In this document: positions 2,337-44,845 of the stretch, piece after piece
How the letters are laid out: every line of letters starts with the position of its first letter
Numbering within the stretch: position 1 is the stretch's first letter
Origin: Candidatus Zixiibacteriota bacterium
GTDB lineage: Bacteria > Zixibacteria > MSB-5A5 > GN15 > FEB-12
Assembly (NCBI GenBank): GCA_016926795.1
Contig: JAFGNW010000230.1
Coordinates: 1 to 44,845 of the forward strand
DNA: 44,845 bases
Reading direction: 5' to 3'
The notes under the pieces: generated by a model
The model's database searches: none
Told to the model about the DNA's origin: nothing
The model's input: the letters and a program-made list of their open reading frames with translations, nothing else
Position numbers and translations under genes: made by a program

Positions 2337-3326
2337 TTAAAACGCAATTAACATGCTAAAGCGATGAACCTCGGTGAGAATACCGAAATCCTGGAAGGCG
2401 TAATCGAAACGAAGCTCGCCGTCTTCCCCGAACGGAAATCTCAAACCGCCGCCGGCCGTAAAGCCGTCCTCATCATAGTGCATCCGGGTACCGCTGCGAA
2501 GAATGAAACGGTCCTTGAAAACATATTCGACACCCATATTGTACTTTTCCAGGTTGTCGGAAGGGTGTGAACCTTCGATTGAGAAAGTCACGAAATTATC
2601 GGTTCGCTCCAGAATGTTGATGCAACCGCCGAACTTGAAGTTAATCGGCAACGGGTAATCGTTTTGAACCATGTTCAAATCGGGTCCGAAATTAGTAATC
2701 ACCATGGCGATTTTGAAGCCGCGGAAGCCGGTATCGTAGGACGTACCGATGTCGGCAGCCCAGCCGCTGGCCGATTCATCGGCGTAATACTCACCGATAT
2801 ACTTCACGTTGAAACCGATAGAGAATCGGTCCGTGAGATAACGGCCGTATCCAACCGAAAAAGCGATATCGTTGGCCTGAAACATCCGACCGGTACCGTC
2901 CGGTCCATCGCCGTAAGTTCTCTCAATCATATCGCCAGTGCTCAGGCCGTAAACGCCGAAACCGAGCACACCGCCGATCGACTCCAGAGGAAAACCAACG
3001 GCACCGAAACCGTAATTGATATCAGCCGGCATCTTGATGTAGGTAAACATAGCCTCCCGACCCAGCAGGGACGTCAACCCGGCCGGGTTGTAATACACGG
3101 CCGAAATATCATCGGATACGGCCGTGAAAGCGTCAGCCATCCCCATGGCTCGAGCTGATACCCCCAGTTCGAGAAATTGAGCACCGGTCGTTCCGACCTT
3201 AGCCTGAGCGTTGACCCGGGCAGGCAACACGGCCAGAACCAGGAACGACAGGCACAGCAGGCATAACAAGCCGGCGCCGGTATATTTCTTTCTGCGCGAC
3301 ACTGGAAGTCTTCTTTTCATTATCAT
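2337..3326 (-). CDS. PorV/PorQ-family (UPF0164-like, FadL-type) outer-membrane beta-barrel
   Basis: Signal peptide, then KVGTTGAQFLELGVSARAMGMADAFTAVSDDISAVYYNPAGL, typical of this family. Alternating beta-strands and C-terminal ..HRFSMLIAF. Confidence 0.85.
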   Translation of the reverse strand: MIMKRRLPVSRRKKYTGAGLLCLLCLSFLVLAVLPARVNAQAKVGTTGAQFLELGVSARAMGMADAFTAVSDDISAVYYNPAGLTSLLGREAMFTYIKMPADINYGFGAVGFPLESIGGVLGFGVYGLSTGDMIERTYGDGPDGTGRMFQANDIAFSVGYGRYLTDRFSIGFNVKYIGEYYADESASGWAADIGTSYDTGFRGFKIAMVITNFGPDLNMVQNDYPLPINFKFGGCINILERTDNFVTFSIEGSHPSDNLEKYNMGVEYVFKDRFILRSGTRMHYDEDGFTAGGGLRFPFGEDGELRFDYAFQDFGILTEVHRFSMLIAF

Positions 3327-3372: not shown

Positions 3373-6300
3373 TTACAGGTTAACTTCCAAACCTAACCTG
3401 ATCTGCCGGCCGTAATCCCAGTTGTAGGGATTAAGGTCATACTCGGTTCCGCCGTAAATGACCTGGGTGATGTTCTGTCGGGTATCGGGGCGTCCGGTGG
3501 CGGTATAAATATAGGTCACGTTCCGGGCGTCGAAGATATTCTCAACCCAGCAAATGAAGCTGTAATCGAGTCCGAAGAGCGAGAAATCCTTGGTGAAGCG
3601 AACATCGAAAACCGCCGTGGCCGGATACCGCAGGGAGTTGCGCTCGATCGATTCGGCCGTTTCCTGCTGAATATTGGGATAGCTCTTGTCCGGCGTAAAC
3701 GGTTGACCGCTCTCGATGACGGATTCGATCGAGAGAGACCAGCCGTTGGGAATCGGCAGGCCGAACAGCCGCGGCTTCACCGTATTCGGCACATAAATCT
3801 GAACGGCTGCCTTCAGTGAGTGCCGGATATCGTTATCCAGTGGCGCTTCGGACAGCGGCTCCCGCGACAGGTAGAAGTCACTCAGGTAATCTTCGTTGGT
3901 CTGGGAGGCCTTACCGTAAGCGAAGGCATAAGTGTAACTGACCTGGCCGTTGACATAACCGCCGCCGCGTTTTTCCAGAGTAAACTCGAAACCGCGGCTC
4001 CGACCATAGTCGGAGTTCTGATACTGCTGACGGGTCAGGCCGCCCACCTTCACCTGTTTGCTGTTGATCTTGTCAAACTCGTCTTTGAAATAACCCGAGA
4101 TGTCAATCGAGTAATATTCGCTCATGGCATACTTTACGCCGAAAGAGTACTGGATGGTTTTCTGGTAATCCAGGTTGTAGTTGCCGACAACATCGTTCTG
4201 GTCCACGGATGAAGTGTTACGCGCGTACATGTATAGGTATTCCGGGAGCTGGTAGAAATGGCCGTAGTTGAAATGGACTTTGGCCTTGTCCGATATCGGG
4301 TAGGAAAAACCTATACGCGGTGAAATTTTATGACGGTCACCGTAAATGATACCGGAACCGAGGTCGTCGTTACGCGCCACCTCGATAAGACTGTCGGTAT
4401 CCTGGATGAAGAAGTCCCAGCGGACACCCAGCGAAGCAATCATCGAACCGTATTCAAGTTTATCGCGGAAATATCCGGTCCCGGCCATCGGGCTGTAGTT
4501 AAACACGTCGCGGAAGGCGCCGCGGTCCGGGTAAGGACCGCCGTCATCACGACCGGTATAAAGAATGTAAACTCTTTCGATATCTTCAAAAGTAAAGCTT
4601 TCATGACGGAAAGCGAAACCGGCTTTCAGTTCGTGCGGACCGAGCTGGCGGAATATTTTCAGCTCCCCGCGGACCCTCTCGATCTCGCGCTGCGTCCAGG
4701 AAATATCTTCGGTATAGTTCCTGGGATCCAGGAAGTTATAGCTGCCACCGTAATCATATTTACCGTTGCCGTTGAGGTCGTCATAAGGTTCGCCCGGGTC
4801 GTACTGGTAATTGCGGCCGTCGAATATACCGTTGCCGTTGCGGTCGAGGAAAGGAATCCCCGGTTCCCACTGGCAACCTTCCGAACCCAGTTCGCAAGGT
4901 CCGTCATAGCGGCCGTTGTGATTGAGGTCATGATTCTCAATGCCGGTGCTCCGGATAAAGACATCGATACCCCGGTCATACAGACCGTTACCGTTGACGT
5001 CGGTGAACGGCTCGCCCAGAATAGAGTCCCCGTCGATATAAGGTTCCGGGCTGCGGTTATTGATGTTGGACACCAGATTCTGGTCGAGAACACCGTTGCC
5101 GTTCTTGTCATAAAGAATATCACCGGAGTCCCAAACACCGTTGCCGTTGATGTCGATAAACGGCTCACCTTCGAGACTGTCCTGATAACCGTTATTGTTG
5201 AAGCGGAATCCGGACCAGTTTATCGAACCGTCCGGGTTTGTATATTCGGTACCGCCCTGTATGTTTTCATCGAAAAGATATTCCCCGAAGGTGTACGCCG
5301 GCCCGTTCACATCCGTCCCGTAAATAGCCGAATCCGGGAACAGGTTGATAATCGGTTCCGGGGCGTCATAGACACCGTTGTCGTTCAGGTCCTGGAAACT
5401 TTCCCATTCGGTATCGAGGTTGAATTCATCGGGGTTCAGACCCTTGCCGGGATTGTTAGGATCACCGGGCTTCTGGGTATATTTAAAGGTATAATAGGAA
5501 AGCACCAGCTCATAGTTCATATCTTTTGAAATCGCCTGGGAAACCTCCAGTGAAAGAGATTTCCAATCCTCCTCGTATATCGGTGCCGTCGAAGATGAAT
5601 AACGATAGTTCCAGTCAAAAACCGTACCGTGCCGTTGAGAATTCTTGTAAGACAGAATGAACTTCAAATTCTGTTTGGGCCGGAACTTCAGGTTGGCCAT
5701 CCAGTAATACCGGTTGCGCAGGCGTTCCGGAATCTGGATACCGAAGAAATTAAAGAAACCGTAATTGTTCCGGGTTTCCGGAGTGTCGTAAGAATCATAC
5801 TGGTAATAACCGTCGTCCTTATCAACTTCAGCGTAGAAGTAATAAGTGAATTCCTTATCCTCCAGGAAATTAAGTCCCAGCGCCGGGAGAATTTTATTCT
5901 TGAAAATCGGGTCCGGACCGGAAAGAGAGAACCTCGTGAAATCATAGTTACGCGAATATTCGTTCAGGTCGGCATTTCCCAGGTCATCGGTAATATACTG
6001 GAAATTGATGCGGGTGTTATCTTTGGACCCGGTCTGGGTGGAGATTTTTACGATACCGCTAAGAGCGTCACCGTATTCGGGGTCGAAACCGTCTTTAATA
6101 ATCTGAATTTCCTGAATGGACCCCGATACCAGCGAAAGGTTCGCCCCCGTCTGGCCCATACCGCCGAGGGGGTCGCCGATCGGGACACCGTCGAGAATGT
6201 AGGATACCTCACCGGCCCGGCCGCCGCGGATAAATACTTCACCGGTTGAAGTGGTTTGAACACCAGCCACCTGCTCCAGCAGAGCATCCACCGTCTGTAC

Positions 6301-6747
6301 CGGTTTGTGCTTGATCGTTTCAGAAGTAATGGTCAGCTTGTTCTCAGTTTCAAAACGGTCAATCACGTCGTGGGTACCAATAACCTTGATCGTTTTATCG
6401 AGGTCACTGACTTTCTTGGTCAGTTTCTGAGAAACCTCGGTAGTCAGGTCAGCGTTCACCACTACATCCGAAACTTCGACAGTGTTATATTCGATAGAAG
6501 AGATCCTAATGGTATAGGTTCCGGGATCCAGGCGAGGGATAATATACTTGCCATCGAGATCGGTGAAGTTACCCATAGTGGTCCCCACGATCAAGACCGA
6601 GGCATTTACAACAGCTTCCCCCGTTTCAGCGTCAGTGATTGTTCCCTTAATCTGACCGAAAGCCGCTGCGAAAGCGGCGGTAGGCATTATCAGTAGACCG
6701 ACAAGGAAAATCGCCAGTAGAGTACAGAACCTCTTTTTATCGAACAT
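3373..6747 (-). CDS. TonB-dependent receptor with N-terminal carboxypeptidase-regulatory-like domain and a large DxNxNG-repeat insertion
   Basis: Signal peptide, GQIKGTITDAETGEA..., plug motifs (FIRGGRAGEVSYILDGVP, GFDPEYGDALSGIV), SPRIGFSYP, C-terminal GRQIRLGLEVNL. AAGGAGG RBS upstream. Confidence 0.93.
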   Translation of the reverse strand: MFDKKRFCTLLAIFLVGLLIMPTAAFAAAFGQIKGTITDAETGEAVVNASVLIVGTTMGNFTDLDGKYIIPRLDPGTYTIRISSIEYNTVEVSDVVVNADLTTEVSQKLTKKVSDLDKTIKVIGTHDVIDRFETENKLTITSETIKHKPVQTVDALLEQVAGVQTTSTGEVFIRGGRAGEVSYILDGVPIGDPLGGMGQTGANLSLVSGSIQEIQIIKDGFDPEYGDALSGIVKISTQTGSKDNTRINFQYITDDLGNADLNEYSRNYDFTRFSLSGPDPIFKNKILPALGLNFLEDKEFTYYFYAEVDKDDGYYQYDSYDTPETRNNYGFFNFFGIQIPERLRNRYYWMANLKFRPKQNLKFILSYKNSQRHGTVFDWNYRYSSSTAPIYEEDWKSLSLEVSQAISKDMNYELVLSYYTFKYTQKPGDPNNPGKGLNPDEFNLDTEWESFQDLNDNGVYDAPEPIINLFPDSAIYGTDVNGPAYTFGEYLFDENIQGGTEYTNPDGSINWSGFRFNNNGYQDSLEGEPFIDINGNGVWDSGDILYDKNGNGVLDQNLVSNINNRSPEPYIDGDSILGEPFTDVNGNGLYDRGIDVFIRSTGIENHDLNHNGRYDGPCELGSEGCQWEPGIPFLDRNGNGIFDGRNYQYDPGEPYDDLNGNGKYDYGGSYNFLDPRNYTEDISWTQREIERVRGELKIFRQLGPHELKAGFAFRHESFTFEDIERVYILYTGRDDGGPYPDRGAFRDVFNYSPMAGTGYFRDKLEYGSMIASLGVRWDFFIQDTDSLIEVARNDDLGSGIIYGDRHKISPRIGFSYPISDKAKVHFNYGHFYQLPEYLYMYARNTSSVDQNDVVGNYNLDYQKTIQYSFGVKYAMSEYYSIDISGYFKDEFDKINSKQVKVGGLTRQQYQNSDYGRSRGFEFTLEKRGGGYVNGQVSYTYAFAYGKASQTNEDYLSDFYLSREPLSEAPLDNDIRHSLKAAVQIYVPNTVKPRLFGLPIPNGWSLSIESVIESGQPFTPDKSYPNIQQETAESIERNSLRYPATAVFDVRFTKDFSLFGLDYSFICWVENIFDARNVTYIYTATGRPDTRQNITQVIYGGTEYDLNPYNWDYGRQIRLGLEVNL

Positions 6748-19714: not shown

Positions 19715-19848
19715 TCTAACAACCTGAGAGCCGTGCCTTCGGAACCGGCGGCGATTTAATGTTGTTAAAGTAAAGACAACCGGTCGCACGGTTAGTATGT
19801 GACCGTCCATAAGCGTTCGTTAACCCTTCGGGCGCACGTAACCCCTTG
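19715..19848 (+). ncRNA. Candidate structured intergenic RNA (unassigned; 6S-like is possible)
   Basis: GC-richer island in an AT-rich spacer. Preceded by TTGGAA-N17-TAAAAT (19680-19708). Contains two C-TTCG-G loops, hairpins GTTGTT/GACAAC and CGGTCGCA/TGTGACCG, and long-range CGTGC/GCACG pairing. Confidence 0.4.
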
Positions 19849-19875
19849 ACAAATGAGGCTATTTTAACCTATAAT
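19846..19875 (+). promoter_or_regulatory. Consensus sigma70 promoter of the PTS IIA gene
   Basis: TTGACA-N18-TATAAT. Confidence 0.65.
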
Positions 19876-19917
19876 GGCTCAATTTTTAAGGAAATTACGC
19901 CGATAAAGATTAATATT

Positions 19918-20418
19918 ATGAGAATTTCGCGATTTTTAAATGAAGAACACATCAAGCTCGAAATGGACACCGTCATCGAGCCGCTCGAGGAGGGTGCATC
20001 GTTCGAGAAGTGGCGGTTGGACGCCAAGGAAAAGATTCTGTCCGAGTTGATAGACCTGCTGGAGAAGAACGGCCGGGTCGGCAACCGCACCAAATTCCTG
20101 CTTGATTTTGTCAACCGCGAAAAAAAAGCCACCACGGCCATCGGCGACGGTATCGCTATCCCCCACATCCGTTCCCTGCAGGCAAAAGAATTCATGATTG
20201 CTTTCGCCCGTTCCTCAACCGGTTATGACTTCGAGTCGCTCGACAGCAAACCCACTCATCTTTTCTTCGTCATGGCGGCGCCGCCTTATGATGATTCACT
20301 TTATCTGAAAGTGTTCAAAACCCTGGCGGAAATGCTCCGTTTTGAATCGTTTCGCAAGGAATTAATGTCTATAAATTCCCCCGGCGAAGTCATCCGCGCC
20401 ATCCGCGCTATGGAATAA
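19918..20418 (+). CDS. PTS EIIA (fructose/mannitol/Ntr type) domain protein
   Basis: NREKKATTAIGDGIAIPHIR (phospho-His motif), FARS..DFESLDSKPTHLFF. The ATG at 19918 is preferred because the TTG at 19846 coincides with the -35 box. Confidence 0.88.
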   Translation: MRISRFLNEEHIKLEMDTVIEPLEEGASFEKWRLDAKEKILSELIDLLEKNGRVGNRTKFLLDFVNREKKATTAIGDGIAIPHIRSLQAKEFMIAFARSSTGYDFESLDSKPTHLFFVMAAPPYDDSLYLKVFKTLAEMLRFESFRKELMSINSPGEVIRAIRAME

Positions 20419-20604: not shown

Positions 20605-22035
20605 ATGAAAAAGACTGTACTCCTCACTACAGCTTTTATCCTGGGTATCTTTCTGATTCTGACTCAGGCCGATGAAATATCCCCGACTTCGGTGTCCCCT
20701 AATGAAATAACTCCGGACGCTTTCAAACAGGTTGAAAAAACGAGTCTCGGGGAGCAGGCTGGTTTTTCCTGCCCGTATAATGCCACCGTTTACGGTCAAC
20801 CGGCTCACGGCCCCGGCGACAGCTGGAGTATCGGTATTTCGGACAAGTTCGCATCGTACCTTATCTATGATGATTTTTCGGGGGCCGGTGTCATAACCGG
20901 TCTTCACTTCTGGGGCGCCACAGCAACCGTAAGCGGCGGTCCCTGGAGTCCCTGCTCTGAAAACCCGGTCTATTTCGGATTCGTTTTTAAGGATGACAAC
21001 GCCGGTTATCCGGACGCGGTGGTGGCGAATCGCTATGCTATTGTCGAGGGTACCCCGACCGGTCAGTTTTATTCCGGCTTTGAACTTTACAGTTACGAAG
21101 TCAGGTTCGAGGAGCCGGTAGAACTGGACAACGGCTGGCTTTGCATATACGGCACAGGCGGTGCCGAGGACTGCTGGTTTGGCTGGGTTAGCGGTACCGG
21201 CGGCGACGGTCAGTGCTGGCATTATGACGGCCTGACTCCTAACATCCGTTATTATGACCAGGCATTCTGCCTGTTAAGCGAAGGTTGCCCGGAATGGGTT
21301 ACGGATTTCGGGCAGGCTCCGATATTACCCTCATCTTCAAATTTCCGCTCTTCCGATGACGGCTCGCCTGAAAACTATTGTGTGTATGATAATTTCTCGG
21401 GTGTCAGCCAGGTTGCCAGCCTTCATTTCTGGGGGATAACGGGTCAATATTCCGCGGGATGGTATCCATGTGCGGAGAACCCGGTGACTTTTTACATAAA
21501 ATTTTATTATGACAACAGTGGGACACCCGGCTCCGTCGCGGCGTCGATGACCAAAACCATCATGGGCAGCCCCACCGGCCTGTTATATATCGGCGGCGAC
21601 TACGAAATGTATGAATACGTCGCTTATTTCCCGCCGGTAGTTCTCACCGACGGCTGGGTATCCATTCAGGGCACCGGGGGTGCGACCGATTGCTGGTTTT
21701 TATGGGCGTCTTCCCGGGACGTCACGGACAATCACTGTTATCAATGGAATGGCTCGACACTCACCGACCAGTCATTTGACATGGCCATGTGTCTTTTTGA
21801 GGATACCGTCTGCTGCGCCGGCGACAGGGGCAACGTCAACTGTTCGCTGGTCGAGGTCCCGGACATCTCCGACATCACCCGGCTTATAGACTATCTTTAC
21901 CTGAGCCATACCGCTCTGTGCTGTCCGGAGGAGGCCGATGTCAACGGTTCCGGCGGCGAACCAGACATTTCCGATATAACCCGGCTGATTGACTTTTTAT
22001 ATCTGAGCCATGCCCCGCTTCCGGGGTGCTATTAA
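20605..22035 (+). CDS. Secreted protein: two tandem Cys/Trp-containing beta-rich domains + C-terminal Cys-flanked dockerin-like domain
   Basis: AAGGAGG RBS and signal peptide. Repeated CP..GQ..YD(D/N)FSG..LHFWG..W.PC.ENPV.F..GW..I.GTGGA.DCWF.W..A(F/M)CL. Tail from 21811: CCAGDRGNVNC..PDISDITRLIDYLYLSH..CCPEEADVNGSGGEPDISDITRLIDFLYLSH.PLPGC. Confidence 0.85.
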   Translation: MKKTVLLTTAFILGIFLILTQADEISPTSVSPNEITPDAFKQVEKTSLGEQAGFSCPYNATVYGQPAHGPGDSWSIGISDKFASYLIYDDFSGAGVITGLHFWGATATVSGGPWSPCSENPVYFGFVFKDDNAGYPDAVVANRYAIVEGTPTGQFYSGFELYSYEVRFEEPVELDNGWLCIYGTGGAEDCWFGWVSGTGGDGQCWHYDGLTPNIRYYDQAFCLLSEGCPEWVTDFGQAPILPSSSNFRSSDDGSPENYCVYDNFSGVSQVASLHFWGITGQYSAGWYPCAENPVTFYIKFYYDNSGTPGSVAASMTKTIMGSPTGLLYIGGDYEMYEYVAYFPPVVLTDGWVSIQGTGGATDCWFLWASSRDVTDNHCYQWNGSTLTDQSFDMAMCLFEDTVCCAGDRGNVNCSLVEVPDISDITRLIDYLYLSHTALCCPEEADVNGSGGEPDISDITRLIDFLYLSHAPLPGCY

Positions 22036-22063
22036 GCTTTAAGGGTCTTTCAGAACGAACCTT

Positions 22064-22090
22064 CCGCCCCGTTTTAAAAACGGGGCGGTT
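22064..22090 (+). terminator. Intrinsic terminator-like hairpin
   Basis: CCGCCCCGTTTT-A-AAAACGGGGCGG perfect inverted repeat, 28 bp after the stop; weak U tail. Confidence 0.65.
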
Positions 22091-22100
22091 ACGGTATTGG

Positions 22101-22129
22101 TTGACAAGTTTAAATCTTCGTTCTATATT
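22101..22129 (+). promoter_or_regulatory. Sigma70 promoter
   Basis: TTGACA-N17-TATATT. Confidence 0.6.
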
Positions 22130-22182
22130 GATTTCGAATTAGAAATCCGATTTTAGACTTGTATATAATCCGCGGAGTAACC

Positions 22183-23199
22183 ATGAAAAAAAACGATTGT
22201 CTGTTCCTAATAATTTTCCTGGCTGTTCTGTTTGTTGCCATCGGCAGCGTAAATGCGCAACCCATCATCGCCGGTCATCAGGCAGCGGCCGAATTCCCGC
22301 TCATCCCTCATCCTTATATAGAACAGGTGAAAAACACCTACAAGATATTTTACGGCCATACCTCGCACGGCAGCCAGATTGTCACCGGCATGGTCATCCT
22401 GAGGGACAGCACCAGCCTTTACGACTTCAACAACGGAACGGGCACGCTGTCTTTGAGCGAGTACGGCAGCGACCTCGGCCATTTGGGCGACACCAGCTGG
22501 GTGCCGATAACCCGCCAGGTCCTCGACCAGTCCGGCAGCGATATTAATATGGTAATGTGGTCATGGTGCGGGGGCTGCTCGGACAATACCGAAGAGGGCA
22601 TTAATATATACCTGAACGCTCTGAACGGTCTCGAGGCGGATTATCCCGACGTCACTTTTATCTATATGACCGGTCATCTGGACGGTTCCGGCATCGACGG
22701 CGACCTGTACCGAAACAATAATCAGATCCGGGTTTATTGCCAGACCAACGGCAAAATTCTTTTCGACTTCGCTGACATCGAAAGTTATGACCCCGCCGGT
22801 ACGTACTACCCCGACGAAACCGATGCCTGCAACTGGTGTTATGACTGGTGCAGTACATATCCCGGCTGCTGCAGCAATAGTTGCGCCCATTCTCACTGCT
22901 TTAACTGTTACCTGAAAGGCCGGGCATTCTGGTGGATGATGGCCCGAATCGCCGGCTGGACCGAAAATCCCGATTGTTGTGAGGGTTTTACCGGTAATGT
23001 TGATTGCTCGGATATCGAGAACCCGGATATTTCCGATATCACGCGCCTGATTGATTATCTTTATCTCAGTCACAATCCCCTGTGCTGTCCGGAAGAAGCC
23101 GATGCGGATGTCAGCGGCGGACAACCTGACATCTCGGATATCACCCGGCTGATCGACTTTTTGTATCTTTCACATCAGCCTCTGGCGGGGTGTCCCTGA
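22183..23199 (+). CDS. Secreted putative hydrolase (GHTSHGSQ family, possibly SGNH-like) + dockerin-like tail
   Basis: GGAG RBS and ATG at 22183, signal peptide ..VNA/Q. Motifs IFYGHTSHGSQI, VMWSWC, FIYMTGHLDG, NNQIR..C..ILFDFADIES, CAHSH..NC..KGRAFWW. Dockerin-like tail from 22975. Confidence 0.8.
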   Translation: MKKNDCLFLIIFLAVLFVAIGSVNAQPIIAGHQAAAEFPLIPHPYIEQVKNTYKIFYGHTSHGSQIVTGMVILRDSTSLYDFNNGTGTLSLSEYGSDLGHLGDTSWVPITRQVLDQSGSDINMVMWSWCGGCSDNTEEGINIYLNALNGLEADYPDVTFIYMTGHLDGSGIDGDLYRNNNQIRVYCQTNGKILFDFADIESYDPAGTYYPDETDACNWCYDWCSTYPGCCSNSCAHSHCFNCYLKGRAFWWMMARIAGWTENPDCCEGFTGNVDCSDIENPDISDITRLIDYLYLSHNPLCCPEEADADVSGGQPDISDITRLIDFLYLSHQPLAGCP

Positions 23200-23306
23200 A
23201 CAAAGATATTGAGTCATAAGAAACGTATGTATAACAGTAAATTGTTTTGAACAATTCAGCGATAAGGACGTCAATAATTAAATTCTCTTGAGATTTTATG
23301 TAAGGA

Positions 23307-23512
23307 TTTTAAGGCTGAACAACCTTAATCATGGACAGGAACAAGGTCGAGGATAAAATCGTACATTAATCGGTATCGAGTTTCGGCCTTGTTCGCCTTA
23401 AAAATGGCCATATACCATGGCCTCTTCGCCTTGGGTAATACTTGCTTATATTACCTTAGAGCGCTTATGTTACCAGGCCATCTTTGCCGACGGCAAAGGT
23501 GGCTTAATTATT
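23307..23512 (+). promoter_or_regulatory. Structured element with alternative pairings ending in an intrinsic terminator (attenuator/riboswitch-like leader or sRNA)
   Basis: Stems GAACAAGGTCGAGG/TTTCGGCCTTGTTC and GGGTAATA/TATTACCT. Terminator GCCATCTTTGCC-GAC-GGCAAAGGTGGC-TTAATTATTT (23477-23513). Competing pairings are described in findings. Confidence 0.5.
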
Positions 23513-23645
23513 TATCATTAATCACGCTGTATTAATTATCATAAAAAATAATTATTAAAATGTAAGATATTACGTTTCACGGAACTATTTATATAGAAGT
23601 ATCCTCACACTCAAATTAAATATGGTTCAAATAAGGGAAGAGGAA

Positions 23646-25481
23646 ATGTCTCTCAGTGCGAAACTCATATTCAGCGCAGCTTTCTGCGGTATTTTCTTTT
23701 ATCAGTTCCTGACAACTTCGGCGGCTTTCGCCCAGTTATCCGTAGACGATATCGACGAACTCCGTGAACGGGGTTGCCGCGAAGGTTGGACCTTCAGTGT
23801 GGGTGAAACTCCGGCTACCCGGCGACCTCTTCCGAAATCCCAAGCTCTTATCATGCCGGAATTTCATTCTCCCCGGGTCGTCTTCACTGCCCGCACGGCA
23901 GTCTCGGAACTTCCCGAAGCCTTCGATTGGCGGGCTCTGGACGGCTGTACGCCGGTCAAGGACCAGGGGACCTGCGGCAGTTGCTGGGCTTTCGGAACCG
24001 TCGGTGCCTTCGAAAGCGCTATCAAAATTCACGACACCCAGACGGTGGACCTTTCCGAACAGTACCTGGTCAGTTGTAACACCGACGATTACGATTGCAT
24101 CCGGGGCGGCTGGTTTTCTTTCGATTATTTTCAATGGAAACCGGACCATTGTGGCGGTGTGGGTGCCGTTCTCGAATTATATTTCCCCTATACCGCCGCT
24201 GATTTCTTCTGCGACTGTCCTTTTCCCCACCGTTACCTTCTCGAATCCTGGGGTTATGTAGGCGGCTCAGGGCTGGATACATTTTACATTCCGGATGTCG
24301 AAGCCATCAAACAGGCTATTTACGATTATGGACCGGTGGCGGTCGGGGTATATGTCAACAGACCCTTCGCCGCCTATACCGGGGGGGTGTTTAATGCCTG
24401 TGAGAACAAAATCCCCAATCATATTGTCGTTCTGGTCGGTTGGGACGATACCCTGGGCGAGGAGGGCGTCTGGATTCTGAAAAACTCCTGGAACATTGAC
24501 TGGGGCGAGGACGGCTATATGTATATTGAGTACGGTTGCTGCGAGGTCGGGTTATCGGCTTGCTTTGTCAATTATACCGGATATTCTTTCTTTGCCGATA
24601 CAACCGTCGGCTGGCCCCCCCTCGAAGTCAATTTCACCGGCTGGGACAACTATCGGTGTGAAAGTTGGTGGTGGGCGTTCGGTGACGGCGACAGCGCCTT
24701 TACTAAAACACCCGGCCATGTTTATACGACCGCCGGGCGCTATGACGTTTCATTCAGGGCAGCCAACCCGATTGATACCCACACTATAACGAGAGAGAAC
24801 CATATTATTGTTCTGGCCGATTCTTTAATCGTCGGTGATTACGCCGGCGAAATAGATTCTCTGATCGAGGTGCCGGTCGCGGCGGTTAATAATATTCCCC
24901 TGTACAGTCTGATTGTCCCCGTTGAATACGCCGGGCCTCTCGACCTGGAATATGTCGGCTACACCACTGCCGGTTGCCGAACGGACAGCACGGCCAAAAT
25001 TGAGTATCGTAATATCGATGCCAACCAAAAACGGTTCGCTCTTGATATCAATTATTACGGTCGTACCCACCGGCTCGAGCCTGGAAGCGGACCGATTATA
25101 ATACTTATTTTTAAAATCAAAAGCGGCGAAAACGAGGCAAGCAATCCGCTTCTTCTTGACGGTTACAACTTGCTGCTGCCGCACTTCATCGGCGAACTGG
25201 CCGATTACGCGCCGGTTCTATCCGAGGGTTCCGTTACTTATATCGAAATTTCCTGTTGTTCCGGCTTAACCGGGAATACCGATTGTTCGGAAAACGAGAC
25301 CCCCGACATCTCCGACATTACCTGTTTAATTGATTATCTTTACGGCACTCATGAACCGCTGTGCTGTCCGGAAGAAGCGGACGTCGATATCAGCGGCGGG
25401 GAGCCGGATATTTCCGACATTACGAAGTTGATTGACCATTTATATCTGAGTCATTCTTCCCTGCCGGAATGTCCCTTGTAA
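23646..25481 (+). CDS. Secreted papain-family (C1A) cysteine protease + PKD domain + cohesin-like domain + dockerin-like tail
   Basis: LPEAFDWR, VKDQGTCGSCWAF (catalytic Cys), NHIVVLVGW (His), WILKNSW..WGEDGY (Asn). PKD W.FGDG...PGHVYTTAGRYDVS. IEVPVAAVNNIPLYSLIVPVEY..LEPGSGPIIILIFKI resembles a cohesin. Tail from 25254. Confidence 0.9.
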   Translation: MSLSAKLIFSAAFCGIFFYQFLTTSAAFAQLSVDDIDELRERGCREGWTFSVGETPATRRPLPKSQALIMPEFHSPRVVFTARTAVSELPEAFDWRALDGCTPVKDQGTCGSCWAFGTVGAFESAIKIHDTQTVDLSEQYLVSCNTDDYDCIRGGWFSFDYFQWKPDHCGGVGAVLELYFPYTAADFFCDCPFPHRYLLESWGYVGGSGLDTFYIPDVEAIKQAIYDYGPVAVGVYVNRPFAAYTGGVFNACENKIPNHIVVLVGWDDTLGEEGVWILKNSWNIDWGEDGYMYIEYGCCEVGLSACFVNYTGYSFFADTTVGWPPLEVNFTGWDNYRCESWWWAFGDGDSAFTKTPGHVYTTAGRYDVSFRAANPIDTHTITRENHIIVLADSLIVGDYAGEIDSLIEVPVAAVNNIPLYSLIVPVEYAGPLDLEYVGYTTAGCRTDSTAKIEYRNIDANQKRFALDINYYGRTHRLEPGSGPIIILIFKIKSGENEASNPLLLDGYNLLLPHFIGELADYAPVLSEGSVTYIEISCCSGLTGNTDCSENETPDISDITCLIDYLYGTHEPLCCPEEADVDISGGEPDISDITKLIDHLYLSHSSLPECPL

Positions 25482-25506
25482 AAATCACCCCTCCTGTGCT
25501 TCTACA

Positions 25507-25548
25507 AAACAGGCCGTCCACGCCCTCCGTGACGGCCTGTTTCCTTTT
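25507..25548 (+). terminator. Intrinsic terminator
   Basis: AAACAGGCCGTC...GACGGCCTGTTT followed by CCTTTT. Confidence 0.75.
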
Positions 25549-25687
25549 CTAAGCCCCGGCAGCGCCAGTATTTCCTTGGCTAAATCGCATAAGTTATTAT
25601 ATTATAACAGATTTCAGCGGTGTACGATTCATTTGAACCCTGGACATCGTTAGTCTACATATAAAATAAACACCTAACGGAGGGATT

Positions 25688-26421
25688 ATGAATGCAAACC
25701 GCACTCCCGGTTCAATCATTATTTACGTTTTCTGATATTCCTTTTAGTCGGCTCCATTTTCGCTGAATATGATTGTCCCGGAGGTACGATATTCGGTCAG
25801 CCGCCGCATTATCCCGAAGATATATCCGCCGACCAAACTTCCGACAACGGTCCCGATGAAGCCAAGCTGATTTGCGATAATTTCACCGGGGTCGCCCAAA
25901 TAGACGGAATCCATTTCTGGGGCATGCATGCTTATTCCGATTACGGCTGGTTCCCCTGTTCGGAAGACCCGATGACTTTTGAGATTATTTTTTATATCGA
26001 CAGCCTTTCGAGGCCCGGCCGCCAGGTCGCTTCACGTACCGTTATACTCGACGCGGTCGCCACCGGCGTTTATTATTATGATAACACTTTTGAACTGATG
26101 GAGTACACGGCCTCGTTTCCGACCGTATCATTAACGGAAGGCTGGCTGTCGATCCAGGGTAAGGGCAATCCTTCCTGCTGGTTCATGTGGCTTTCGTCCC
26201 GTACGAGCCTGGACAGCATAAGCATCCAGTACGGCGGCGGCACCAACTATATGCCCTGGGATTTCGCCTTTTGCCTGACGGGCACGACCTCCTGCTGTAG
26301 CGGCTTTACCGGTAACGTCGATTGTTCGACCGAGGAGGCGCCGGATATCTCCGATATTACCCGGCTTATCGATTATCTCTATTTATCGCATAACGCTCTG
26401 CCGGTTTGCCCAGAAAAGTAG
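25688..26421 (+). pseudogene. Frameshifted single-domain paralog of the 20605 gene with a half dockerin-like tail
   Basis: GGAGGG RBS and ATG at 25688 give MNANRTPGSIIIYVF*. Adding one T to the T4 run at 25728-25731 restores MNANRTPGSIIIYVFLIFLLVGSIFA-EYDCPGGTIFGQPP..CDNFTGVAQIDGIHFWG, continuous with ORF 25924-26421. The tail has only one PDISDITRLIDYLYLSH repeat. Confidence 0.8.
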
Positions 26422-26472
26422 GCCGAAAATCAGCATGCGATCTGCTTTTTTCTTTATTCGAAAACAAAATAC

Positions 26473-26501
26473 TTGACATAACAAACCTTATTTCATATAC
26501 T
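26473..26501 (+). promoter_or_regulatory. Sigma70 promoter, about 250 nt upstream of the thrombospondin-repeat gene
   Basis: TTGACA-N17-TATACT. Confidence 0.6.
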
Positions 26502-26759
26502 ATTATAGAGCTTATTATCTTAGTTGAGAGGGGAATATTTCAAATTTTTTCGGGAGGAGGTGGTAAAAAAATAACATTTTTTTCTTTTTACGTTTCTATT
26601 TACAGTAACATTCATTACTCGTTATCGAAAATCAATCTAAAGTAGAAGCAAGTACGTTTTCTTTAGTTCGTCAGCAATGGCGGTCAACTATTCGAACTCT
26701 GGAAGCAACCGTTTATTCAAATATATAAAATTAAACGCGTAAAACATGGAGGTGGTTTT

Positions 26760-28976
26760 ATGAAATTTAAAGCTTTCCTCGCCCTCATATGTTTTTTCAC
26801 GTTGGCCTGGACACCGGTTCTGGCCGATGAGGGCGGCGCTAAAGACACCGTGGACATGGTTATTACCGTGATGCCCGATTCCGCCCTGGGACAACTCAAC
26901 GTCCAGCTGGAGTTGTGGGTTTTTGACGATGACGACACCCTGAACGGTGCTTCGATGGGTTTCGGCTGGGACAACCCCAAGATGCAGATGACCGGCGCTG
27001 TCGCCGGCCCCGGGGTCAGCGGTTTTATAGCCCCTGTCTTTTTTGACAACAATGACATCGACTGGGCCAACGCTAATCAGGTGTTCTGCTTTGTGGGGTT
27101 ACGCCTGTTCACGCCTGGTGTTTGGCCTAACCCGACCAGACAACTCTGGGCGACTTATAACGCCACCGTTACAGCTGACTGGAATACATCGGATGTCATT
27201 CACATCGACACCTTCGCGTATAGTTCCGGGACCAAGTATAAATTCGTCAGCTCCACCCGGGACGATTACTATCCCTACTGGACCGGCGCAGTCGATGTTT
27301 ATAATTACATGGACAGCGACAATGACGGTCTCCCGGATTACGAGGACAATTGCCCGCATAACTATAATCCCGGTCAGGAAGACGGAGATGGCGACGGGGT
27401 GGGCAACCTCTGCGATAACTGCCCCGGAACGCCCAACGAGGAACAGGTCAATTCCGACGGTGATAGTTACGGCGATGCCTGTGATAACTGCCCGGCCGTC
27501 ACCAACGAGAATCAGGCCAACAACGACGGGGACAATTATGGTAACGTTTGCGATAACTGTCCGGACGACTCCAACAACGACCAGGCCGATTCGGACGGCG
27601 ACGGGGTGGGCGATGCTTGCGATTTGTGTCCCGGTTACGACGACAACCTTGACGCCGACAACGACAACATTCCCGACGATTGCGATAACTGTCCGGCCAA
27701 TTACAACCCCACCCAGGCCAACAACGATGGAGATGAGTTCGGCGATGCCTGCGATAACTGCGATTATGTCACCAATCCCGGCCAGGAGGACGGCGACGGC
27801 GATGGGGTGGGCGATGTCTGCGATAACTGTCTGACCATACCCAACACCAACCAGCAGAACTCGGACGGGGACAATTACGGTAACGCTTGCGATAACTGCC
27901 CGTACGACGCCAACAACGACCAGACCGATTCGGACGGCGACGGGGTAGGTGACGCCTGCGATTTGTGTCCCGGCTACGACGACAACCTTGACGCCGACAA
28001 CGACAACATCCCCGACGATTGCGATAACTGCCCGGCCAATTACAACCCCACCCAGGTTAACAATGACGGGGATGAGTTCGGCGACGCCTGCGATAACTGC
28101 GATTATGTCACTAATCCCGGTCAGGAAGATGTCGACGGCGACGGAGTGGGTAACGTTTGTGACAACTGCCTCGACGTACCGAACACCAACCAGCAGAACT
28201 CGGACGGCGACAGCTACGGCAACGCCTGTGACAATTGCCCCTCCACCACCAATGAGGACCAGCTTAATTCCGACGCCGATAGCTATGGCAACGCCTGTGA
28301 TAACTGCCCCAACGAGGACAATGAGGACCAGCTCAATTCCGACAGCGATACCTACGGTAACGCCTGCGACAACTGCCCGACCGTCACCAATCAGAGTCAG
28401 ACCGACGGCGACGGTGACGGGGTGGGCGATGCGTGCGATATCTGCCCCGGTTATGACGACAACGTCGATACCGATGCCGACAGCCATCCCGACGGCTGCG
28501 ATAATTGTCCCGACGACTACAATCCCGACCAGGTTAATTTCGACGGCGATTCGATGGGTGACGTCTGCGACCCGGATGACGACAATGACGACATCCTTGA
28601 CGATGGCGACCTGAGCGGCACCATCGGCGACAATTACTGCACGGGTGGAGAATTCGAGAACTGCGATGACAACTGCCAGTTTGAGCAAAATCCCGACCAG
28701 GCCGACAAGGATAACGACAGCATCGGGGATGCCTGCGACGGCTGCTGTATCGGGGTTACCGGTAATGCCGATTGTGACGGGAACCAGATAGTGGATATCG
28801 TGGATATCACTTATTTAATCAGGTATCTTTATGTGGAACCAGGGCAATTTGAATTATGCTGCGACGAAGAAGCTGATGTTAACGCTGACGGCAAACCCAA
28901 ACCCAATATTTCCGATATTGTGAGATTAATTGATTACCTCTATATTAGTCACGCTCCTTTGCCCGATTGTCCGTAA
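26760..28976 (+). CDS. Secreted thrombospondin type-3 repeat protein with N-terminal cohesin-like beta-sandwich and C-terminal dockerin-like domain
   Basis: GGAGGT RBS and signal peptide ..VLA/D. About 20 repeats of D.DGD..G(D/N)ACDNCP...N..Q. Tail from 28743: CCIGVTGNADC..VDIVDITYLIRYLY..CCDEEADVNAD..PNISDIVRLIDYLYISHAPLPDCP. Confidence 0.9.
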   Translation: MKFKAFLALICFFTLAWTPVLADEGGAKDTVDMVITVMPDSALGQLNVQLELWVFDDDDTLNGASMGFGWDNPKMQMTGAVAGPGVSGFIAPVFFDNNDIDWANANQVFCFVGLRLFTPGVWPNPTRQLWATYNATVTADWNTSDVIHIDTFAYSSGTKYKFVSSTRDDYYPYWTGAVDVYNYMDSDNDGLPDYEDNCPHNYNPGQEDGDGDGVGNLCDNCPGTPNEEQVNSDGDSYGDACDNCPAVTNENQANNDGDNYGNVCDNCPDDSNNDQADSDGDGVGDACDLCPGYDDNLDADNDNIPDDCDNCPANYNPTQANNDGDEFGDACDNCDYVTNPGQEDGDGDGVGDVCDNCLTIPNTNQQNSDGDNYGNACDNCPYDANNDQTDSDGDGVGDACDLCPGYDDNLDADNDNIPDDCDNCPANYNPTQVNNDGDEFGDACDNCDYVTNPGQEDVDGDGVGNVCDNCLDVPNTNQQNSDGDSYGNACDNCPSTTNEDQLNSDADSYGNACDNCPNEDNEDQLNSDSDTYGNACDNCPTVTNQSQTDGDGDGVGDACDICPGYDDNVDTDADSHPDGCDNCPDDYNPDQVNFDGDSMGDVCDPDDDNDDILDDGDLSGTIGDNYCTGGEFENCDDNCQFEQNPDQADKDNDSIGDACDGCCIGVTGNADCDGNQIVDIVDITYLIRYLYVEPGQFELCCDEEADVNADGKPKPNISDIVRLIDYLYISHAPLPDCP
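27519..28196 (+). repeat. Tandem 339-bp (113-aa, five-repeat) intragenic duplication
   Basis: GATTCGGACGGCGACGGGGT at 27588 and 27927. The CDLCPGYDDNLDADNDNIPDDCDNCPANYNPTQ block occurs twice, 339 bp apart. Confidence 0.9.
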
Positions 28977-43296: not shown

Positions 43297-44310
43297 TTAA
43301 AAAGTAAATCCGACCGAAAACTTGTGGGTCTGTTCCAGGCGGCCGAAATCCTGCCAGGCGTAATCGATGAACAGCCGGGTGTCGCTGGAAATCGGTGTGA
43401 TCAGGCCACCGCCCAGAGACAGGGTTTCCTCGTCATAGTTCAACTTGTACCCGCCCCGGAGGAAAAACTTCTCGTCGTAAGCATATTGAGCACCCAGGTT
43501 GCCCTGCTGGATATTGTCGTTGGGATGTCTCAAATCGGCACAAACCGTAATCAGCGACTTAGGTCCGAAGGCGAAGTCATAGGCAATCCCGACTTTGAAA
43601 ACCATCGGCAAATCATAAGGCGTGGTTTTCAACTGAGAGCTGACCAGATTGTTGTTACCGACCCCGGTCGAGATTTCGTCTTCCGTCGGGTCATAGCGGA
43701 CGTCCAGGTCGGTCCCGGTGAATTTCATTTCCGGTCCCATGTTGCTTATGCTCATGCCCAGCCGCAGCGACCGGAAACCGGTATAGAGCAGGGTCCCGAA
43801 ATCGAAAGCGTAACCCCGGGCTCGTTCGTTATGGATTCTTTCCTCGACATACTTGACCGTGGCGCCGAACGCGAACCGGTCGGTCAGCTGACGGGCGTAG
43901 GTGACCCCGACAGCGTAAGAGGCCGCCGAGTAATAACTGCCGGTTCCATCCTCTTCAGTGAAAGTGGTAATTTCCTGGTCATCCATAGAGAGGATAGCGG
44001 CCGAGATACCGAAGACGCCGACGTCTTCGAAATACTTGGCCGCGGCGACATAGTTAAGGTCGATATCCAGGAGCCAGTTGACGTTGGTGAAGCCCACCGC
44101 CATGTTTTCCACCTCGACCAGACCGGCCGGATTCCAGTACATGGCATATACATCGTTGACGGAAGCCACCGAGGCTTCCCCCATGCCCTGGTATTTTGAC
44201 CCGACACCTATTTTGAGAAACTGGGCGCCTGCCGAACCCGTTTTGGACAATTCGGCGGAGGCGGTACCAGCCAGGCTCAGGACGAGCAAAAGTACAAAAA
44301 ACTTTTTCAC
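43297..44310 (-). CDS. PorV/PorQ-family outer-membrane beta-barrel (paralog of 2337-3326)
   Basis: AAGGAGG RBS and GTG start, signal peptide. KTGSAGAQFLKIGVGSKYQGMGEA..YWNPAGL, TGFRSLRLGMSISNMGP, C-terminal HKFSVGFTF. Confidence 0.87.
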   Translation of the reverse strand: MKKFFVLLLVLSLAGTASAELSKTGSAGAQFLKIGVGSKYQGMGEASVASVNDVYAMYWNPAGLVEVENMAVGFTNVNWLLDIDLNYVAAAKYFEDVGVFGISAAILSMDDQEITTFTEEDGTGSYYSAASYAVGVTYARQLTDRFAFGATVKYVEERIHNERARGYAFDFGTLLYTGFRSLRLGMSISNMGPEMKFTGTDLDVRYDPTEDEISTGVGNNNLVSSQLKTTPYDLPMVFKVGIAYDFAFGPKSLITVCADLRHPNDNIQQGNLGAQYAYDEKFFLRGGYKLNYDEETLSLGGGLITPISSDTRLFIDYAWQDFGRLEQTHKFSVGFTF

Positions 44311-44322
44311 GATTCGCCTCCT

Positions 44323-44845
44323 TTACTTAATGATGGCAAAGCGCCCGAGTCGCTCGCCATACGGGGAATCAACATGATATATATAAATTCCGGAAGCGAC
44401 CTGCTGAGCATTGCCGCTCAAAGCGTCCCAGCGGACCACTCCGGTACCATCGTCATGATTTATCGTTTTGACCAGATCACCGGCCAGAGTGTAGATACGG
44501 ACCGTGCACCGGTCGGGCACATTACGGAATTCCAGCACCGTCATCCCTTCGGCTGTTTCCGTCCGGGGGTCGTTGGTGGCGAAATAGGGGTCCGGCACCA
44601 CTTTGATATTCTTCAAATCCCGTGAGGCATCAGCGGCACTAACGCCGTCCACCCGGAAATCAAAGACATCATCGGGGCCGTTCATCGGCGCCCCTTCAAT
44701 AGTAAAGACGTCGTTAACGGCCGGATTATAGACCTCTTCATCGAAACCGAACAGCCAGCAGTAATAGTACGGGAAAGCCAGCGAGGTCAAATCCTGCCCC
44801 GGGTCGTATGCGTAATCGACAATCGAAAGCAGGTCGTAAGGGTCC
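44323..44845 (-). CDS. C-terminal part of a larger protein ending in a T9SS type-A/FlgD-like C-terminal domain (5' end outside window)
   Basis: Frame is open to the window edge (DPYDLLSIVDYAYDPGQDL..). Ends IKVVPDPY..LEFRNVP..CTVRIYTLAGDLVKTI..WD...QQVASGIYIYHV....RLGRFAIIK. Confidence 0.85.
   Translation of the reverse strand, partial: DPYDLLSIVDYAYDPGQDLTSLAFPYYYCWLFGFDEEVYNPAVNDVFTIEGAPMNGPDDVFDFRVDGVSAADASRDLKNIKVVPDPYFATNDPRTETAEGMTVLEFRNVPDRCTVRIYTLAGDLVKTINHDDGTGVVRWDALSGNAQQVASGIYIYHVDSPYGERLGRFAIIK

Follow-up and report, generated by a model that had tools for sequence, protein, structure and literature searches.

Positions 20605-28976 of the 44,845-nucleotide stretch analysed here (the window), which comes from a metagenome-assembled genome (MAG) of a Candidatus Zixiibacteriota bacterium, are occupied by five successive plus-strand open reading frames (ORFs). 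Each encodes a C-terminal tail of about 78 amino acids (aa) with six cysteines, of which ORF4 retains half (Table 1). The C-termini of the other ORFs are 54-73% identical to that of ORF1 over about 80 residues. The first CC pair of the tails falls at 21811, 22975, 25254, 26293 and 28743, exactly where a first-pass annotation of this DNA had put it when it described five neighbouring genes with a common tail. Judging from homology, the tail is a divergent type-I-like dockerin made of two near-identical repeats, each predicted to form a calcium loop and a helix. It probably serves, with real room for doubt, to dock secreted cargo in a cohesin-dockerin system that is anchored at the surface and dominated by proteases. 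In the textbook case, Gram-positive anaerobes organise their cellulases by cohesin-dockerin assembly; here, the module pair is met in a diderm candidate phylum.

Table 1. Features of the five-gene array and of other parts of the window (Cys, cysteine; CTD, C-terminal domain; T9SS, type IX secretion system)
Feature	Position	Strand	Description
ORF1	20605-22035	+	476 aa; signal-peptide-like N-terminus, two copies of a beta-rich domain, tail 21811-22032
ORF2	22180-23199	+	339 aa from the ATG at 22180; signal peptide, unnamed domain of ~230 aa, tail 22975-23196
ORF2, cargo domain	22264-22950	+	residues 28-257
ORF3	23622-25481	+	619 aa; papain-family peptidase, PKD, class B cohesin-like module, six-Cys tail
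ORF3, Peptidase_C1	23910-24539	+	Pfam, 157 bits
ORF3, PKD	24645-24794	+	PKD_4, 31 bits
ORF3, class B cohesin-like module	24804-25241	+	matches the C120 cohesin family (hhalign 92.5%)
ORF3, six-Cys dockerin tail	25254-25478	+	5 residues separate the class B module from the CC
ORF4, degraded	25678-26421 (open frame)	+	one copy of the ORF1 domain; half tail 26293-26418
ORF5	26760-28976	+	738 aa; signal peptide, unnamed N-terminal module, TSP_3 repeats, tail 28743-28973
PTS-EIIA-like gene	19846-20418		flanks the array
NlpC/P60 gene	29056-29478	-	flanks the array
PorV/FadL-like barrel	2337-3326	-	adjoins 3373-6747
TonB-dependent-receptor-like protein	3373-6747	-	1124 aa; CarboxypepD_reg and TonB-dependent-receptor Plug domains
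PorV-like outer-membrane barrel	43297-44310	-	Pfam PorV, 41 bits; directly downstream of 44323-44844
ORF running off the window	44323-44844	-	C-terminus like a T9SS sorting domain (...SGIYIYHV...AIIK)

A hidden Markov model (HMM) built from the five window tails was run on the 40,649 six-frame ORFs of the 3.29-Mb assembly, which is 88.5% complete, and matched 93 ORFs at E < 1e-3, 63 of them in a strong class of at least 95 bits, so that the likeness of the tails goes well beyond chance. The consensus of these 63 tails reads G-N-x-D/N-C-S...P-D-I-S-D-I-T-R-L-I-D-Y-L-Y in repeat 1 and A-D-x-N/D-x-S-G-G-E-P-D-I-S-D-I-T-x-L-I-D-x-L-Y in repeat 2. Both repeats hardly vary at their loop and helix residues, and the acidic and amide positions are kept in at least 90% of rows. 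Compared with the 12-residue loops of the genome's classical dockerins, the tail loops are longer by two residues in repeat 1 and by one in repeat 2.

The tail HMM also matches the genome's own Pfam-positive dockerins, and a graded series leads from the six-Cys form to cysteine-free modules that Pfam recognises as dockerins. When a profile of the 63 tails was compared with 10 cysteine-poor dockerins of the same genome, the two aligned over 65 columns (hhalign 99.7%, E = 4.9e-26). The profile of those 10 in turn matches solved type I dockerins, from 4fl4_A at E = 2e-7 through 1clc_A, 4dh2_B and 2ccl_B to E = 1e-3. The Atlas clusters nearest the tail, taken as a lead only, are labelled "Dockerin type I domain-containing protein" and come from Zixibacteria (score 0.89). 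The dockerin-like nature that the first-pass annotation had ascribed to the tail is thus upheld by homology, through transitive profile comparison.

Type I dockerins (PF00404; 4fl4, 1clc, 4dh2, 2ccl) likewise consist of two tandem calcium-loop and helix repeats at the C-terminus of secreted enzymes. Near-identical repeats, one specificity over many paralogues and cohesins in the same genome are further points of likeness to the cellulosomal forms; in known dockerins, the near-identity of the repeats is the basis of dual binding. The tail differs from type I dockerins in its six conserved cysteines and longer loops, in its cargo of peptidases and adhesin-like proteins with no carbohydrases detected, and in its host, a diderm of the Fibrobacteres-Chlorobi-Bacteroidetes (FCB) group. 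The cysteine-rich dockerins of anaerobic fungi are also small multi-cysteine docking modules on secreted enzymes, but their fold and sequence are unrelated to those of bacterial dockerins, whereas the Zixibacterial tail and the bacterial type are homologous. In known dockerins, the positions before the last calcium ligand set specificity. Within this genome these positions are almost invariant among the 63 tails, so that all of them would compete for one cohesin specificity.

Cargo, cohesins and type IX secretion

The strong tails are C-terminal in 63 of 63 cases, and the 93 modules as a whole comprise 82 that are C-terminal, 7 that are N-terminal or internal and 4 that are cut by a contig end. 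One internal example occupies residues 37-101 of a 751-aa protein. Since 41 of the 93 ORFs lie no more than 1.5 kb from another tail ORF, arrays like that of the window are common. A crude rule, applied to ORFs of at least 150 aa with an intact N-terminus, called a signal-peptide-like start in 62 of 77 tail ORFs, and the tail is the commonest C-terminal module of Sec-exported proteins in the genome.

Pfam was run on 88 of the 93 tail ORFs, that is, all those of at least 60 aa, and the cargo was counted from the resulting tables, with families taken at E <= 1e-4. Peptidases account for 29 of the 88 ORFs (S8 x8, C10 x5, C25 x5, C1 x4, M14 x4, M1, M4 and M28). TSP_3 repeats are present in 14 ORFs, FG-GAP in 7 and DUF7948 with an SBBP propeller in 4, while a beta-lactamase fold, DUF7901 and Fib_succ_major are found in 2 each; CotH with LTD is found in 1, and 25 have no Pfam family. 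No glycoside hydrolase (GH), polysaccharide lyase or carbohydrate esterase family was found on any of the 88, and the dockerin-borne carbohydrate-active enzymes that mark a cellulosome in the strict sense are accordingly missing. The first-pass annotation had proposed a genome-wide count of the tails with a list of their cargo; that cargo is mixed and non-carbohydrase, as it had supposed.

Cohesins are encoded in the same genome. The Pfam cohesin family is above its cut-off in three ORFs (C127:2887-5385, C120:9179-10051 and C205:3-1655), with 12 matches at E <= 1, and a cohesin HMM made from this genome finds nine ORFs that bear a T9SS CTD, together with one fragment at a contig end. All of the complete cohesin proteins terminate in Por_Secre_tail, the T9SS sorting domain, and each contains one or two cohesins. 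The C120 protein consists of a signal peptide, a cohesin and the CTD in 285 aa. Its family is large and conserved, and the profile of that family matches solved cohesins (6kg8_A at 3.6e-6, then 5lxv_A, 5nrk_A and 1aoh_A, to 4e-3). Among the 8,000 best-sharing candidates scored, at least 7,783 are homologues of C120 at E <= 1e-10, and the named matches are Zixibacteria. Pfam, the genome HMM and the C120 profile therefore agree that cohesin partners exist in the genome, as the first-pass annotation had expected. The lipid-anchored cohesins or clostridial-type multi-cohesin scaffoldins that it had envisaged were not found; the cohesins are T9SS-CTD proteins. The many-cohesin scaffoldin anchored by S-layer homology (SLH) domains or sortase, which characterises cellulosomes, is likewise missing, and no SLH family occurs among the Pfam matches of the cohesin proteins (sortase signals were not looked for).

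A scaffoldin-like same-strand cluster at C127:43-11596 (locus L143) encodes a 412-aa protein with a dockerin variant, followed by three cohesin and CTD proteins of 871, 833 and 940 aa. Two cohesins are present in each of two of these three, and an internal dockerin of a distinct "GDINLNG...FTNYF" kind is found in those of 871 and 833 aa. Five cohesin-CTD proteins of the genome contain an internal dockerin of a third kind. Of the T9SS itself, the genome has 37 CTD matches and a SprA homologue, and of its several PorV-like barrels two lie in the window.

In 11 tail proteins, mostly proteases and including ORF3, the tail is preceded by a class B cohesin-like module, whose end lies 3-5 residues from the CC in the 7 measured. 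The module resembles the C120 family (hhalign 92.5%) and the Archaeoglobus cohesin 2xdh_A (E = 0.011), and together with the tail it recalls the X-module-dockerin dyad. A cysteine peptidase of Ruminococcus flavefaciens with such a dyad binds the anchor ScaE, and an S8 protease of Clostridium thermocellum with a double dockerin binds cell-bound ScaD (PMC12484212). ORF3 is similarly a cysteine peptidase in which an Ig-like or cohesin-like module stands without linker before the dockerin, and docking to cell-bound cohesins is proposed for the cellulosomal proteases and for the present system alike. Unlike the X module as described, the preceding module of ORF3 is cohesin-related. In the cited sections of that review, proteases are rare accessories of cellulosomes, whereas here they form the largest cargo class.

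Since cohesin partners are encoded, a cellulosome-like assembly for proteolysis and adhesion is the best reading of these data, and homology, cargo and cohesins all favour the first-pass proposal of such an assembly without carbohydrases. The cohesin proteins carry a T9SS CTD, and we thus propose that T9SS delivers them to the cell surface; T9SS cargo can be either released or surface-anchored (PMC10202324). The tail proteins would reach the surface by a separate route, perhaps by one of two secretins, and their tails would dock on the cohesin modules in a non-covalent, calcium-dependent manner, so that a set of proteases and adhesin-like proteins would be bound to the cell. In such an assembly, the dyads of class B module and tail may stiffen the dockerin or permit chains, and the cysteine frame could be a covalent or metal-mediated version of the clasp linking the N-terminal end of dockerins to the C-terminal one, useful among proteases. 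About 90 genes in a 3.3-Mb genome would then serve a system that holds proteases in the place of carbohydrases and relies on type IX secretion for its display.

Several observations weigh against docking by this tail. Pfam Dockerin_1 recognises ORF5 only (29.3 bits, cut-off 22.9), the other 4 of the 5 window tails are without a match even at E <= 10, and the 63-tail profile has no match among solved structures (PDB) at E <= 1, so that the dockerin assignment is transitive. At least three cohesin classes are candidate partners of the six-Cys tail, and none is singled out. The tail proteins have no T9SS CTD to take them across the outer membrane, and only two secretins were found in the genome. 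Exactly one residue follows the last cysteine in 53 of the 63 strong tails, which would also suit a processed signal. Family searches for DsbA, DsbB, VKOR and Thioredoxin_4 found none of them in the 88.5%-complete genome, and exported proteins have no even-cysteine bias (0.44-0.45 versus 0.44 in non-exported ones), although the crude gene set and permissive signal-peptide rule of this test make it weak evidence only.

Some of these points suit a different function, which we regard as quite unlikely: the chief role of the tail might be that of a signal for sorting, export or anchoring, recognised by some outer-membrane route or processing enzyme as a counterpart of the T9SS CTD, and cohesin binding would be secondary or absent. 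The uniformly terminal position of the strong tails and their nearly constant ending fit such a signal, as does the finding of no outer-membrane route for tail proteins beyond the two secretins. Tail and T9SS CTD never occur in one protein: the CTD motif N[YF]PNPF is present in 35 other ORFs and in 0 of the 93 tail ORFs, and Por_Secre_tail (type A, PF18962) matched no scanned tail ORF. The CTD-bearing proteins carry the same kinds of cargo as the tail set (C1 with lectin, S8 x4, C25, M6, FG-GAP and SBBP). On the other side, the dockerin homology is clear and both calcium loops are conserved, classical dockerins are also mostly C-terminal, and cohesins occur in this genome as well as across the phylum. 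Two-cysteine relatives of the tail, moreover, form tandem arrays of 8-9 units, unlike a terminal signal. The pure secretion or anchoring signal that the first-pass annotation had offered as its second option is not favoured because 7 of the 93 modules are N-terminal or internal, and docking on cohesins is preferred to it. A recent exchange of CTD and tail between paralogues was considered separately and rejected, as the best cargo pairs are only 30-38% identical.

The cysteine frame

Two of the six cysteines precede loop 1, one lies in loop 1, two are in the linker between the repeats and one is at the very C-terminus. Four are invariant in the 63 aligned tails, and the other two are present in 61 and 62 rows. 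Over the 90 complete dockerin-like modules that the genome encodes, cysteine states form a nested and mostly even series. In the 2-Cys state, one cysteine immediately precedes the conserved Gly and another stands at the C-terminus; in the 4-Cys state, loop 1 and the linker each hold a further cysteine; and in the 6-Cys state, the linker and the stretch before loop 1 each have two. In the Fib_succ_major proteins C29:6398-8650 and C60:6190-7200, a 4-Cys dockerin is N-terminal, right behind the signal peptide. The metagenomic proteins P0272 (720 aa) and P0335 (1187 aa) have 8-9 tandem dockerin units, which start with Cys-Gly-Asp and end with Cys, giving each unit one cysteine pair at the positions of the 2-Cys state. 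The cargo parts of about 60 exported six-Cys proteins contain 2.08 Cys per 100 aa, compared with 0.74 in other exported proteins, by the crude rule.

A precedent for a link at these positions is the clasp of the ScaA dockerin of R. flavefaciens, in which the residues at -1 to -3 ahead of the conserved Gly touch one close to the C-terminus, stabilising the calcium-bound dockerin fold. Known clasps are aromatic, hydrophobic or electrostatic, and the word "disulfide" is not used in the cited text (PMC3821032). The 2-Cys Zixibacterial forms likewise place their cysteines at clasp positions; unlike that of ScaA, their clasp would be covalent or metal-mediated and, in the larger forms, extended by two further cysteine pairs. 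Because the end cysteines fall on clasp positions and recur in each tandem unit, the paired gain favours pairwise links, most simply disulfides. No literature on a natural cysteine-framed bacterial dockerin was found by title, and in the cited sections of the 2025 cellulosome review disulfides appear only for engineered systems (PMC12484212).

The first-pass annotation had called the tail disulfide-clamped. The gain of cysteines in pairs agrees with this, while the missing oxidases and the missing even-cysteine bias do not, the latter arguing against routine disulfide formation. For these two reasons a metal-thiolate brace is a possibility to be kept in mind, if the lesser one: the tail would still be a docking dockerin, but its six cysteines would bind metal, as a Cys4 or Zn2Cys6-like thiolate cluster, in place of forming three disulfides. 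The only listed DNA source is a sediment metagenome, and the 4-Cys and 6-Cys states fit one or two tetrahedral thiolate sites numerically. However, a pair of cysteines at the clasp positions, once per tandem unit, is better suited to a disulfide, as is the gain of cysteines two at a time, and the genome is incomplete and may encode unrecognised oxidases.

A bolder and doubtful extension would give the Zixibacteria of this family a "proteolysome": in each genome, 60-100 secreted proteins, one in three of them a peptidase, would fit into cohesins displayed by T9SS, all by means of one uniform dockerin with a cysteine brace. Metal-thiolate chemistry or a non-Dsb disulfide would make up this six-Cys brace, and the tail might also be the handle by which some other route carries these CTD-less proteins over the outer membrane. 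If this were true, the brace would allow the calcium-dependent docking module to persist in anoxic sediment among the proteases of its own system. Should binding be confirmed, protein engineering would gain a dockerin that resists proteases and is possibly clasped covalently, and there would be a test case for the folding of an exported cysteine-rich module without a recognisable Dsb system.

Distribution and known counterparts

Across the phylum, 201 evenly sampled genomes were surveyed with the tail profile at E <= 1e-10 and with Pfam cohesin at E <= 1e-4. The tail profile matches 90 of the 201 genomes, including 73 of 73 in the family of the window, 11 of 21 in the sister family and 1 of 12, 2 of 5 and 2 of 10 in three further families; there are no matches in the other 14 families of the sample. 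Pfam cohesin is found in 183 of the 201. In other genera of the window's family the six cysteines are kept, and the residues before the last calcium ligand vary (I-S to M-G, V-A or I-G), as do the helices.

One genus of the same family, g30, has few six-Cys matches and 22-42 classical Dockerin_1 matches. A C120-like cohesin-CTD ORF is present in 4 of 4 of its genomes tested, so that within one system either dockerin form seems able to replace the other. Pfam cohesin was found in none of these four genomes, which also have the fewest tail matches, and a co-loss of cohesin and tail was considered for the genus; it was rejected, as all four have the C120-like cohesin and the classical dockerins.

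The same genomes bear on an unlikely alternative in which the tail acts without cohesins, either as a calcium-dependent stabilising or self-associating module or by binding polysaccharide, the S-layer or a neighbouring module. Seven genomes of the family have tail matches but no Pfam cohesin, and the class B module that abuts the tail in 11 proteins resembles the X-module-dockerin dyad, in which the neighbour supports the dockerin and does not receive it. However, divergent cohesins were found with the C120 profile in all the g30 genomes tested, cohesin and dockerin modules co-occur across the phylum, and the near-invariant helix surface residues of the 63 paralogues point to one shared protein partner. 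Docking on cohesins is thus the reading retained.

A search of 1.84 billion representative proteins with the tail profile gave 6,127 matches at E <= 1e-3, 2,144 at E <= 1e-10 and 84 at E <= 1e-30. Among the 120 tail relatives listed of 151 from a length-limited search, almost all are unnamed or "hypothetical protein", and few have precomputed Dockerin_1 matches. Since the six-Cys form is missed by annotation in this way, a large and coherent portion of what a widespread sediment phylum secretes goes unread. Among the 80 best genome matches to the tail, a single one, on a 3.5-kb contig of a MAG titled Bacteroidales (locus L216), is not of Zixibacteria type. Mis-binning seems likelier than transfer in this case because the contig is short.

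Dockerin-borne peptidases on a CTD-anchored cohesin scaffoldin have already been proposed for the FCB group. In the cloacimonadotal "Ca. Stygibacter", dockerin-bearing S8 and C25 peptidases and a CTD-bearing cohesin scaffoldin were inferred from genomes in 2021 (PMC8542988). As far as the cited text goes, the two systems have much in common: an FCB-group bacterium represented by MAGs, signal-peptide enzymes with C-terminal dockerins and a T9SS CTD on the cohesin protein, all deduced from genomes alone. In the same text, Stygibacter has InterPro dockerins on a few enzymes, GH18 and GH57 among them, and one scaffoldin of 3,755 aa with carbohydrate-binding modules, and a six-Cys dockerin form is not mentioned. 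The Zixibacterial genome, in contrast, has 60-90 tagged proteins in 3.3 Mb, no detected glycoside hydrolase family among them, and several small cohesin-CTD proteins. Supplements excluded, no prior description was found of the six-, 4- and 2-Cys dockerin forms, of the scale, of the protease-dominated cargo or of the family-wide presence, and no literature was found that links Zixibacteria with dockerin.

Genes of the window

The five proteins of the array differ in their cargo. The first-pass labels are accurate for the repeated beta-domain of ORF1, the C1A protease of ORF3 and the thrombospondin repeats of ORF5, while the putative hydrolase of ORF2 finds no family to support it. The beta-rich domain of ORF1 is unnamed (no Pfam family) and forms an internal repeat with 44% identity (E = 1e-37). 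ORF2 has an alternative start, a TTG at 22159, which would give 346 aa. Its cargo matches no Pfam or NCBIfam family; it is a member of an unnamed family that is widespread, with proteins of ~260 aa, and has no Pfam model. The Atlas clusters nearest to it are all unnamed ("hypothetical", score 0.95-0.96), with Planctomycetota and Thermodesulfobacteriota most frequent, and the hydrolase label was rejected on these grounds. In ORF5, TSP_3 scores 132 bits with Pfam, and an MtsC-like match of 318 bits is under its cut-off of 350. A cohesin was considered for the N-terminal module of ORF5 and rejected (hhalign probability <1%). As to expression of the array, no RNA source is listed, and RNA contigs of the same study match only the thrombospondin repeats, with 90-95% likeness.

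ORF4 as called runs from 25924 to 26421 (165 aa). There is no in-frame ATG, GTG or TTG between 25678, where its frame opens, and 25924. Upstream, a Met-led stretch in a neighbouring frame and a hydrophobic stretch in the frame of the ORF look like one signal peptide broken by a frameshift. Assembly error was considered as the source of the frameshift and rejected: a second assembly of a possible source run, which is not independent, has 0 differences over 21966-27158. Two orthologues in the same genus, of 296 and 315 aa, have hydrophobic N-termini and full tails. Compared with these, ORF4 lacks exactly one tail repeat unit, in frame, as would be expected of unequal recombination between the two near-identical repeats. 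Without a start, with a split signal peptide and one repeat unit short, ORF4 proves to be the pseudogene with half a tail that the first-pass annotation took it for.

Another half tail, in a 133-aa ORF at C182:24622-25020 on the minus strand (locus L097), joins the head of repeat 1 to the end of repeat 2 like that of ORF4, so that recombination between tail repeats recurs. Naturally truncated, single-repeat dockerins (group 2) of R. flavefaciens can be functional (PMC12270676), and the tails of ORF4 and C182:24622-25020 have a single repeat as well. In contrast to group 2, ORF4 has orthologues with full tails and is itself without a start and an intact signal peptide. Because these too are lost, its half tail looks like decay rather than a functional class.

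The neighbouring genes of the array are housekeeping genes. At the right end of the window, the T9SS-like CTD that the first-pass annotation had reported is in agreement with the look of the C-terminus of the ORF that runs off there, on which Pfam is silent at E <= 1e-4; the PorV-like barrel lies directly downstream. A second barrel, PorV/FadL-like, adjoins the 1124-aa protein near the left end, and these two may be an uptake pair for products of extracellular proteolysis.

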